Shown piece after piece: positions 2,167 to 5,322 of a stretch of 64,000 nt of DNA. A program made the position numbers and the translations under genes. Below the pieces are notes generated by a model. That model saw nothing but the letters and a program-made list of their open reading frames with translations, searched no databases and was not told the origin of the DNA. Source of the DNA: Stylophora pistillata. Lineage: Eukaryota. The DNA lies in assembly GCF_002571385.2 (NCBI RefSeq), contig NW_019217964.1, forward strand, positions 127,829 through 191,828. The letters run 5' to 3'. Every line of letters starts with the position of its first letter. Positions within the stretch are counted from its first letter, which is position 1.

Positions 2167-5100
2167 ATGGATGGCTTATATCTTAAAATAACTCAAGATT
2201 TTGCACCCGATCCTAAAGAAGCCAGGTTTGGTGGCAAAGATTCGCCGATGGCGGTTGAAAAAGGTGATATTATTTTCGACGTTCGTAAAAGAGGAGACGG
2301 ATGGATGTATGGCAAAAATTTGAACAGTGGAAAAACTGGAAAATTTCCTGAGAGTTGTGCGGCAAAACTGACTGGAAATAATAAAAAAGGGAGCGGTTCA
2401 GGAAGTCCTGATACAGAGACTAATAGCGATGAAAAACCGGCTGCAAAAGATGACAAGAAGCCCGCATGGCTTCAAAATCGAACAACTACGCCTACAGTTA
2501 GAAAAACGCCACTTTACCCGAAACCATTTGCCGGAAGTATGAAACAACCACAAGAGAAAGCGAAAGAAGAACGAAAAGAAACGTCGGGAGATTCAGGAGT
2601 TGTAGAAGATTCTGTAGATGGAAATTATTGTAACGATGATGAGAAATCAGCGAAGCGAGACGTTTCAAAAACCGGAAATCCAATGAAAGATGATAAACAG
2701 GATCCAAAGTTTGTCCCTAGATCACTCCAGACACTTCAGAAACAGAAACCAGGGTCCGAGGCGACTGAAACAGAAAAAGAACCGCCTAAAGCGATTGGAA
2801 GGCCTTTCAGATTGAATTTAAATAGGAGTGGTGACAGTTTAAAGTCGACAGAAACGAAAGCGGCACTACGAGTGGATACGAAAAAAAAACCGACATCAGC
2901 TACCGCGAGGGATTCATTGCGATCTAAGCCCACGCCGAATAAAGATTTCAACGAGGATGGAAATTACGAACCTGTAGAGAAAAGCAAAGAGACAAAACTC
3001 CAATTGAGAGAGACGCTCACAAGTAGTAAACCGAAGGAAGTTTCTAAACCAGCAGAAACTCAGCTGGGCAAAATTAATCCGACAGAAAACGCTAAGAACT
3101 CTGGCGAGAAAAATCATTCAAACGTGACCAACAAGCGCGCTGCTGGGGGCGCTGCAGTTAATATTCAAGAGAACCCACTGTTGAAGGACGAAGCGAATAT
3201 TTATCAAGTCCCAAACGTGGTTTTACCACCTAAACCTGCCCGATCAAACGACCAAGGTTGTGCGGAGTGTAACGAACCACATATTTACGATACACCGATG
3301 CATTACAAAACACCACCATCGTCGCCTTCGACGAAAAAGCGAGGGATAGATGAAACAACAGTCGAGAAACCGAAAGATAAAAATCATAAATCAAAAGATG
3401 GTTCATCAACTCTGAAGCCAACATCATCAGTAATCAGGAAGACTAAAGAGCAAATGAAGAACAGAATGGCTTCGTATGAGAGTATAGATACAGAAGGCAA
3501 GCGCTCTACGGAGAGCATCAAGGATGCGGTGCTTGCAGTAAAGGAGACCAAAGAAAAACTGCTCGCGCCAAAGAGGCGACCGAAGTTACGAATTTTACTG
3601 GGCATGTTTTTAGGATTGCTTCTGGGTGTTTTCATCTTTTTGACATTTTTTCTCCTCGCTCATTTGCACGTTGTGACGAGCATCGTTTCCGCTCTTATCG
3701 TGGGTTTTGTTGTGGCAACAATTTTCGGATTTCTCGACAAGACGCGACTCCAATGCATCGCTTTACTGGTTTTCCCAAGCCTATTTGCATGTGGTGGGAA
3801 AATTTCCCTCTGGTTGCTTATCACGTTTTTCATCCTTTCTGGTCCAATGTGCAATTTTATTGAGAATGTACGCTTGGTCACCCATCACAGAGCTTGCCTA
3901 ATGGACACTGAACATTTCGCGGACAATAGTAGTGATAATCCAGCCAGATTTGTTCTGGCTGATAAAAATAATCGTGCTGTGGTACAACGTTTGATAATGT
4001 ACGAGAACATTTCACACGAACTGCAAGAATACATGAATAATTCCCTGTTGTCATCAGCTGATAGTCTAGATAACTTGTCTGCTGATAATAATTCATTTGA
4101 GCCAATTTGCATGAGTTCTCTGCGGCGCGCATTTAACATCTGCGCCTCTGAGATCGACAACATGTACAGCCAATGTACGAAACTGAACCCACCAAACTGT
4201 CAATTTCTTACGCCAAGGAACGCTTGTGATCACCTCACTGACAGCCAGATAAGAGAAACGTGCAAAGACATCAACAACGCGAGTTATCACACGTTATCAC
4301 AAATTGAGAAAATAATTGGACGTTTCCCCGAGCGAATGGCAACAAAAGATAGTATCACGGACAAAAATAACACTGTTGTCGCAACAGGGGAACCTTGTGA
4401 CTTTGTCCATATCATAACTCTGTTGTTACCTTTATTGGTTTTAATTGTATTGTACGAAGCGTACAGTTATCACAAGTGGTATCTTTCTTGCAATGAGTTT
4501 GACAATCACTATCTCACGCTTCGCTTCAAGTCGATCGAGGACATGCGCAAGTCAAGCGGAGCCGCTGACCTACTGGTTCCACTGAAGAAAGCCGAGCTAC
4601 AGAGATTCGTTCAACCAACTGGCTGTCAACTGGCTAAGAGCGAGAAAAGAAGCATGCTGAAATACTTGATGTTTTACTTTGTTTATTTGATTTATGCCCT
4701 TATAATTATTTTCTTAGATCATTACTTTTATCTTGTTATCACTCGAGAGGAACCACGTTCCAATATTCCTGGTAGGTGCGATGGCACACTCAAGAGGCTG
4801 AACGAGTCTTACGTCATCGTCTTGTCAACTCTTCTGGGAGTTCTGCTCTTGATCATCATTCTCCAAGCCTTTATCCTTCGCCTTCGCCGTTTGATTGCGT
4901 CGCGCTTCTACCCCAGACGAGAGAGAAAACGCATTGCTTACCTTTACTACAAACTTCTTGAAGAGCGCAAGCTGTTTTACAAATCGGTTATCGAAAATAT
5001 GAACAACTTCTCTGAAGAAAATGAAACACTCAACAAGCTGGACGCAGTACTGGTTTTGTGTAATAATTTCAGCTGGATAAAAGCAGTGTTCGAGTTTGTA

Positions 5101-5322
5101 GGAGTCAGTGTTCAAAGATGTTCTGTATGTGGCACTGGACTTAGCAGAAAGTACTTGCACTGTGACACGGAAGACTGTGAGGTATTTTACTGCCGAACCT
5201 GCTTCTGGGACCTGGAAAATAAGTGTCTTGGCTGCATGAGCAACAGCAAGATGACGTCACGGTCGTCGAGCATGAGTGGCCAATCACAGAGAAGAAAGAA
5301 CGATTACGTCAAACCTGTTTGA
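2167..5322 (+). CDS. Intronless SH3 + DC-STAMP-like multi-pass membrane protein with C-terminal C4C4 RING (DCST1/2, Sneaky, SPE-42/49-like)
   Basis: 1051-aa ORF; N-terminal SH3 signature (VEKGDII...DGWMYG...GKTGKFPESC); hydrophobic helices from about aa 475; Cys-rich luminal loop; DC-STAMP motifs (FDNHYLT, LVPLKKAE, RLRRLIASRFYPRRERKRIAYLY); terminal CSVC...CDTEDC...YCRTC...CLGC. Confidence 0.85.
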   Translation: MDGLYLKITQDFAPDPKEARFGGKDSPMAVEKGDIIFDVRKRGDGWMYGKNLNSGKTGKFPESCAAKLTGNNKKGSGSGSPDTETNSDEKPAAKDDKKPAWLQNRTTTPTVRKTPLYPKPFAGSMKQPQEKAKEERKETSGDSGVVEDSVDGNYCNDDEKSAKRDVSKTGNPMKDDKQDPKFVPRSLQTLQKQKPGSEATETEKEPPKAIGRPFRLNLNRSGDSLKSTETKAALRVDTKKKPTSATARDSLRSKPTPNKDFNEDGNYEPVEKSKETKLQLRETLTSSKPKEVSKPAETQLGKINPTENAKNSGEKNHSNVTNKRAAGGAAVNIQENPLLKDEANIYQVPNVVLPPKPARSNDQGCAECNEPHIYDTPMHYKTPPSSPSTKKRGIDETTVEKPKDKNHKSKDGSSTLKPTSSVIRKTKEQMKNRMASYESIDTEGKRSTESIKDAVLAVKETKEKLLAPKRRPKLRILLGMFLGLLLGVFIFLTFFLLAHLHVVTSIVSALIVGFVVATIFGFLDKTRLQCIALLVFPSLFACGGKISLWLLITFFILSGPMCNFIENVRLVTHHRACLMDTEHFADNSSDNPARFVLADKNNRAVVQRLIMYENISHELQEYMNNSLLSSADSLDNLSADNNSFEPICMSSLRRAFNICASEIDNMYSQCTKLNPPNCQFLTPRNACDHLTDSQIRETCKDINNASYHTLSQIEKIIGRFPERMATKDSITDKNNTVVATGEPCDFVHIITLLLPLLVLIVLYEAYSYHKWYLSCNEFDNHYLTLRFKSIEDMRKSSGAADLLVPLKKAELQRFVQPTGCQLAKSEKRSMLKYLMFYFVYLIYALIIIFLDHYFYLVITREEPRSNIPGRCDGTLKRLNESYVIVLSTLLGVLLLIIILQAFILRLRRLIASRFYPRRERKRIAYLYYKLLEERKLFYKSVIENMNNFSEENETLNKLDAVLVLCNNFSWIKAVFEFVGVSVQRCSVCGTGLSRKYLHCDTEDCEVFYCRTCFWDLENKCLGCMSNSKMTSRSSSMSGQSQRRKNDYVKPV

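Follow-up and report, generated by a model that had tools for sequence, protein, structure and literature searches.

DC-STAMP-family membrane proteins are needed for sperm-egg and osteoclast fusion, and how they promote fusion is an outstanding question. Could a member of this family be connected directly to tyrosine-kinase and actin signalling? The question is raised by a gene of the coral Stylophora pistillata, located in a 64,000-nucleotide stretch of contig NW_019217964.1 (positions 127,829 to 191,828 of the forward strand; hereafter the window, whose numbering is used below). An uninterrupted open reading frame at window 2167-5322 (+) forms the coding sequence for a product of 1051 amino acids (aa), P0001, which belongs to a set of 36 full-length homologues of 955-1137 aa, itself included. 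A preliminary description, made from the sequence alone, had proposed a single-exon gene encoding an N-terminal SH3 domain, a charged region with YxxP-type tyrosine motifs, a DC-STAMP membrane region and a C4C4 RING, possibly acting in cell or gamete fusion. The domains were found as proposed, and, judged by sequence comparison, the SH3-headed DC-STAMP branch is a real and widespread addition to the known family.

The SH3 domain occupies aa 4-68 (window 2176-2370, +) and is atypical. Pfam SH3_1 was called at aa 28-61 with 23.4 bits against a cut-off of 22.9; when the first 100 residues were searched, aa 19-71 matched solved SH3 domains with a best E of 3e-6; and SH3_1 was found at E<=0.001 in 25/25 aligned hexacoral orthologues, which bears out the domain. 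Three strands of the SH3 fold are visible in a low-confidence full-length model. For measuring conservation, 25 of the 36 homologues were aligned and the nine most distant rows were used for regional identity; against these rows the SH3 scores 0.66, the top value of all regions, and the membrane and RING blocks score 0.53-0.61. Named homologues come from Nematostella (XP_032227232.1, the orthologue), Actinostola, Acropora, Orbicella and Porites, and a second homologue search with alignment A1 returned no further proteins. Judged by the canonical aromatic positions and motifs (ALYDY, PxNY) of SH3 domains, the RT loop is long and the first Tyr of the ALYDY motif is replaced, position 10 is non-aromatic and the Tyr of PxNY is changed to Cys (position 64) in 25/25 orthologues, and F12, W46, and P61 are retained.

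The DC-STAMP membrane region also stands: Pfam DC_STAMP (PF07782) scores 94.1 bits against a cut-off of 25 and is matched in 25/25 orthologues, the match being split in two by the absence of about 50 profile positions. A first membrane block with predicted transmembrane helices TM1-TM3, preceded by a basic cluster, covers aa 472-565 (window 3580-3861, +; hydropathy, and a predicted local distance difference test score, pLDDT, of about 90 in the model). It is followed by a predicted helical ectodomain with six family cysteines and a polar tip loop at aa 566-743 (window 3862-4395, +; alignment and model), and by predicted TM4-TM6 with the Pfam DC_STAMP domain (window 4396-4947, +; Pfam and hydropathy). 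At the C-terminus, the C4C4 RING-type finger is confirmed by eight cysteines at aa 985-1023 (window 5119-5235, +), modelled with pLDDT above 90 and present in 24/25 orthologues, the exception being a gene model without that stretch; it was called by the precomputed PF26037, and the Pfam set run here did not call it. The ectodomain cysteines are C648, 659, 670, 678, 687, and 699, five of them in 25/25 orthologues and one in 24/25, and their spacing agrees with the about 9-13 aa of the SPE-42 family, one spacing being 8. Thus all three hallmarks in the definition of that family, which includes the six-cysteine ectodomain (PMC3053230), are present, namely DC_STAMP, the six-cysteine ectodomain and the C-terminal C4C4 RING, and P0001 resembles DCST1/DCST2, SPE-42/SPE-49, and Sneaky in its predicted six-pass core, ectodomain, DC_STAMP domain, and RING.

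Hydropathy and the model predict six clear hydrophobic helices and one ambiguous one, with no evident signal peptide. Both are compatible with cytosolic N- and C-termini, as predicted for SPE-42 (PMC3053230), and from six predicted membrane passes the SH3, the tyrosine motifs, and the RING would all be cytosolic. A model of aa 470-1024 made from 132 rows (pLDDT 85.8; predicted template modelling score 0.69) displays membrane helices, a helical stalk, and the RING. Foldseek gave no match to the membrane model at E<=0.001, which says nothing on fold novelty, and the best VIA match (Z 8.5 over 52 residues) is a plain helical hairpin.

Between the SH3 and the membrane lies a charged, presumably cytosolic linker (aa 69-471, window 2371-3579, +), predicted to be disordered from its low identity and lack of secondary structure. 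The full-length fold from 25 rows reaches a pLDDT of 43.8 and was therefore used for disorder only; in it the linker has a pLDDT of about 30 and no secondary structure. Within this linker, a motif island at aa 331-390 (window 3157-3336, +) contains NPL, YQVP, PxKP, CxxCxExH, YDTP, and YKTP. The motifs IYQVP, LPPKP, IYDTP, and HYKTP named in the preliminary description are indeed in place: YQVP at aa 346 (window 3202-3213, +), PxKP, here PPKP, at aa 354 (window 3226-3237, +), YDTP at aa 374 (window 3286-3297, +), and YKTP at aa 380 (window 3304-3315, +). With a fourth YxxP at aa 117, such motifs take 4/7 linker tyrosines (binomial p 0.0016). Identity to the nine most distant orthologues is 0.15 over aa 69-330, 0.55 over aa 331-386, and 0.18 over aa 387-430, and 21/56 island columns are kept in at least 8/9 of these rows. 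The conservation of the tyrosine motifs, on which the earlier proposal had hung, is strict, since Y346/P349 and Y374/P377 are invariant in 25/25 orthologues, together with Q347, P354, K356, P357, and H372; C365, C368, and Y437 are each found in 24/25, Y437 belonging to an ASYE motif (window 3469-3483, +) that provides a further tyrosine site. Across the 36 homologues, the first and second island YxxP sites are present in 36/36 and the third in 31/36. Such invariant sites in an otherwise unconserved linker show that the tyrosine island is under selection. A separate observation concerns CxxCxExH (window 3259-3282, aa 365-372), a conserved stretch with tyrosine motifs on both sides; it may bind zinc or serve as a clasp.

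Is the fusion of this head to the membrane core genuine? An assembly or annotation artefact, or a head that is non-functional baggage, might be suspected because the SH3 of P0001 is barely above the Pfam cut-off and most of the linker is unconserved. This suspicion is refuted by the single open frame, by continuous RNA contigs, and by the same architecture in 25/25 orthologues with the SH3 so well kept in the distant rows, and its probability is practically nil. RNA contigs at window 1914-6090 and 2184-6098 run without an internal joint, the stranded reads are in sense orientation in three raw-read runs, and window 834-1835 is almost without RNA signal. In 3/4 runs, a short upstream exon is joined to window 1916 by a GT..AG splice, so that the gene has two exons, one of them coding: the "single-exon" proposal holds for the coding region and fails for the transcript, which carries an extra spliced exon of 5' untranslated region. 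The non-coding first exon is found some 5.3 kb upstream of the window (about G000:C181:122476-122527), and the second exon (window 1916-6098, +) contains the rest of the 5' untranslated region, the entire coding sequence, and the 3' untranslated region. The first intron is about 7.2 kb and spans a gap of Ns; a duplicated stretch flanks this gap (L003:3685-3870 and 7688-8035; L003 about 5530-7430), and the intron length is thus approximate.

Databases label the orthologues of the coral protein DCST1 or DCST2-like. Three trees of the membrane region were built, from 124/147 matching rows (fragments dropped) plus 6, from 80 hand-picked rows, and from 36 hand-picked rows, all without vertebrate DC-STAMP or OC-STAMP; a search with P0216 returned just two proteins, none of them vertebrate DC-STAMP. 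The labels DCST1-like and DCST2-like for two of the clades are ours, no row in either having been named by a database. The mixture-model tree of 36 rows supports a cnidarian clade (100/100), a DCST1-like clade (100/99), a DCST2-like clade (100/99), and a third bilaterian group (92/95). The cnidarian clade falls outside the DCST1-like and DCST2-like clades in all three trees, and by this measure the cnidarian proteins are a clade of their own, separate from DCST1 and DCST2. Their nearest neighbour differs between trees: they join the DCST1-like group in the 124+6-row and 36-row trees (90/90), and the third group in the 80-row tree (support 94), and approximately unbiased tests on the 36 rows do not reject a union with the third group (p 0.177) or with DCST2-like (p 0.078); a sister position to DCST1-like or to DCST2-like is thus not rejected. 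SH3 cross-scores, by which one and two origins of the SH3 were compared, overlap those of unrelated SH3 controls. In its own genome, six different queries found no family member besides the gene of P0001, which suggests that it may be the sole one. Searches of the genome found HAP2 exons and small SH3 exons and missed Med17, so that absence of DCST1/2 from the genome is not claimed. Three weak matches on contigs other than that of the gene did not exceed 6.2 bits with the family profiles and were rejected. The exons of the gamete fusogen HAP2/GCS1 (PF10699, two over the cut-off) lie on the same contig (G000:C181:4271-6538, +; L011-L013), about 125 kb upstream, a linkage that is probably due to chance.

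The SH3-headed architecture extends beyond corals to jellyfish, molluscs, annelids, and brachiopods. When 1.84 billion representatives were searched with a profile, 1097 matched, and relatives were taken from the best 150; among 41 hand-picked rows, SH3 together with DC_STAMP was Pfam-confirmed in 13. With a profile built from the family SH3s themselves, and hence partly circular, the SH3 was detected in 10/15 cnidarian rows, 15/32 rows of the third bilaterian group, and 0/77 DCST1/2-like rows. The preliminary description had taken the known family members to lack an SH3; this is right for the DCST1/2-like rows, 77/77 of which are without the SH3 and YxxP head of the coral protein, and wrong overall, SH3-bearing members being widespread in invertebrates. 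Named carriers with at least one Pfam-confirmed row are Lingula, Mizuhopecten, Pinctada, Haliotis, Mya, and Owenia; Helobdella and the jellyfish Sanderia are carriers by the family profile only. Named third-group rows without SH3 are those of Lytechinus, Anneissia, Liolophura, and Daphnia, of which the echinoderms Lytechinus and Anneissia have long YxxP-bearing heads. The mollusc, annelid, and brachiopod proteins named "DCST2-like" (XP_067663683, OWF55803, XP_013397042, and CAH1787808) likewise carry the SH3 at the extreme N-terminus before the same core, but have shorter linkers, few YxxP, and full-length outer loops. An ESM Atlas cluster of 80 mostly molluscan proteins has DC_STAMP in 100% and SH3_1 in 69%, and it drops to rank 13 once the head is removed from the query. 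Within the cnidarian clade, the rows without SH3 are P0120, P0122, P0123, P0166, and P0209; P0120 seems to be a tandem paralogue of the SH3-bearing P0029 whose SH3 was lost.

What would such a head do? Since searches detect the SH3, the tyrosine motifs have been kept, and no account of the architecture was found in the literature searched, coupling to tyrosine-kinase signalling may fairly be inferred. We give an about even chance to a phosphotyrosine-gated, p130Cas-like scaffold mounted on a membrane RING protein, which would link the membrane core to actin, probably in somatic cells, and prefer it to a role on sperm and to an intracellular E3 ligase. It is favoured by the two YxxP sites that never vary within the poorly conserved linker, by the predicted cytosolic termini, and by YxxP in N-terminal tails, which is enriched in the 15 cnidarian rows (42/144 Tyr vs 10.7 expected), less so in the 32 third-group rows (21/160 vs 9.5), and not in the 77 DCST1/2-like rows (5/155 vs 6.7). 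The layout of the head also favours it: p130Cas/BCAR1 likewise has an N-terminal SH3 followed by a region of YxxP repeats, and phosphorylated YxxP is the consensus for the Crk SH2 domain (PMC2689226). YQVP and YDTP would be phosphorylated by a kinase of the Src or Abl type and then bind SH2 adaptors of the Crk or Nck type, which in turn would recruit Rac/WASP-type regulators of actin to this part of the membrane; the atypical SH3 may retain a kinase, another partner, or PxKP of the same protein, and the RING may ubiquitinate or hold partners. The coral protein differs from p130Cas, with its 15 motifs, in having three or four, in being embedded in the membrane, and in carrying a RING. No chain named p130Cas/BCAR1 was among the best 60 of 66 solved SH3 matches, so that the resemblance is probably convergent. 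Tyrosine signalling is not new to the family, since vertebrate DC-STAMP signals via a cytoplasmic immunoreceptor tyrosine-based inhibitory motif (PMC7461040). Vertebrate DC-STAMP/OC-STAMP thus share with the coral protein the DC_STAMP domain and, if our reading of the latter is right, tyrosine-motif signalling and somatic expression, whereas no SH3 is reported for them in the literature consulted and their motif is in the C-terminal tail, not in an N-terminal island. Furthermore, a shared promoter counts for the scaffold: the first exon and the start of a spliced multi-exon minus-strand gene are about 100 bases apart, in head-to-head orientation. In run X24, read depth is 16-32 over the coding sequence versus 2-5 over the neighbouring SEN34 gene, and the transcript is present in RNA-labelled runs from four studies.

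Several points weigh against a kinase-gated scaffold. Two usual ligand-pocket aromatics are missing from the SH3, whose PxxP-binding surface is thus not intact, and it may not bind PxxP; moreover, the SH3 is missing in 5/15 cnidarian rows. The YxxP enrichment counts ignore the relatedness of rows, and just 11/32 third-group rows have any N-terminal YxxP. The YxxP sites of medusozoan rows do not line up with the hexacoral island. As to somatic expression, next to no transcript is present in 2/7 indexed RNA-labelled runs, and the runs are of unspecified tissue, coral colonies possibly including gonads.

Alternatively, P0001 could be the cnidarian counterpart of DCST1/DCST2 on sperm, acting at fertilisation alongside HAP2, with the SH3-tyrosine head driving actin at the sperm-egg contact. 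The SPE-42-family hallmarks, the apparent lack of another family member in the genome, the position of the cnidarian clade next to the DCST1-like group in 2/3 trees, and the HAP2 gene on the same contig are in keeping with this role. Mouse and fish Dcst1/2, however, are testis-enriched (PMC8989947), and the coral transcript is readily seen in bulk RNA, the gene being not obviously testis-restricted. At 33 aa, the second outer loop falls about 40 aa short of the median of 75 in bilaterian rows. A hydrophobic stalk tip has been proposed as a fusion-relevant feature of DCST1/2 (SPARK preprint, PMC13192892), and we infer that the loop between Cys3 and Cys4 is this tip. The loop has a hydropathy of -1.57 in P0001; it is polar across the cnidarian rows (median -1.16, with the pattern located in 18/21) and hydrophobic in DCST1-like (0.92, 26/29 rows) and DCST2-like (0.56, 41/48 rows) proteins; with the loop so assigned, P0001 lacks the hydrophobic tip expected of a DCST1/DCST2 orthologue. 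Thus, the polar tip, the shorter loops, and the single coding exon set the coral protein apart from DCST1/DCST2, and since Med17 was also missed by the genome search, true DCST1/2 may exist unseen. The suggested role in gamete or cell fusion has therefore gained no positive support, three observations oppose a DCST1/2-like role, and we regard it as unlikely. Less likely still is that P0001 is chiefly an endoplasmic reticulum (ER) or endosomal membrane E3 ligase for immune or phagocytic signalling, whose SH3 and tyrosine motifs would select substrates rather than engage actin. The RING is intact, DC-STAMP is partly at the ER (PMC8989947), and DCST1 is reported to act as a ubiquitin ligase (PMC8830517). 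The second-best solved SH3 match is that of the E3 SH3RF1, but its score is close to those of many unrelated SH3s; no significant match to the RING was found among solved structures, and the six ectodomain cysteines and the stalk are retained, as in surface-acting members.

With regard to origin, a possible but doubtful scenario is that the SH3-phosphotyrosine head was already present in the cnidarian-bilaterian ancestor and is ancestral for the whole DC-STAMP family, that cnidarians keep one such gene, and that DCST1, DCST2, and DC-/OC-STAMP arose via duplication and head loss. If so, the family would have begun coupled to kinases and actin and been recruited later to sperm, and the coral protein would contain within itself the signalling link still sought for DCST1/2. 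No description of the SH3 plus DC-STAMP architecture was found in the literature searched, which covered few subscription papers; the databases already contain it, one relative being auto-named "SH3 domain-containing". In the Discussion of PMC8989947, invertebrates are stated to have solely DCST1/2, a statement that the SH3-bearing branch corrects. BLAST-based maps pool the DCST1 and DCST2 families (PMC13192892, Fig. 4 legend), and such pooled "DCST1/2" maps in cnidarians and molluscs may be counting this branch. With its built-in SH3 and conserved phosphotyrosine sites, this branch suggests a specific connection to kinases and actin that could be tested in animals amenable to genetics, such as Nematostella.

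Other features surround the gene. The head-to-head neighbour upstream of the window is spliced (L003:575-1977, -) and is presumably MED17-like; Pfam did not confirm this. Downstream, a single-exon gene for the tRNA-splicing endonuclease SEN34 lies at window 7854-8954 (+), and in the Porites evermanni model CAH3016148.1 (1372 aa) SEN34 and the DCST-family gene appear to be fused, which suggests that the model is misannotated and that the two genes have stayed adjacent. A single open reading frame at window 35308-36513 (-) has an unusual combination of a TPM/MOLO1 domain, a likely membrane helix, and a RING finger, and another at window 56345-57295 (+) has a RING, a TRAF-type zinc finger, and a coiled coil. 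Reading frames at window 10955-11533, 12132-12587, and 15160-15768 (-) apparently encode two related cysteine-rich tandem proteins, probably secreted. Finally, a tandem repeat of about 30 bases, with a gap of Ns, at window 23841-24809 is open in all six frames.

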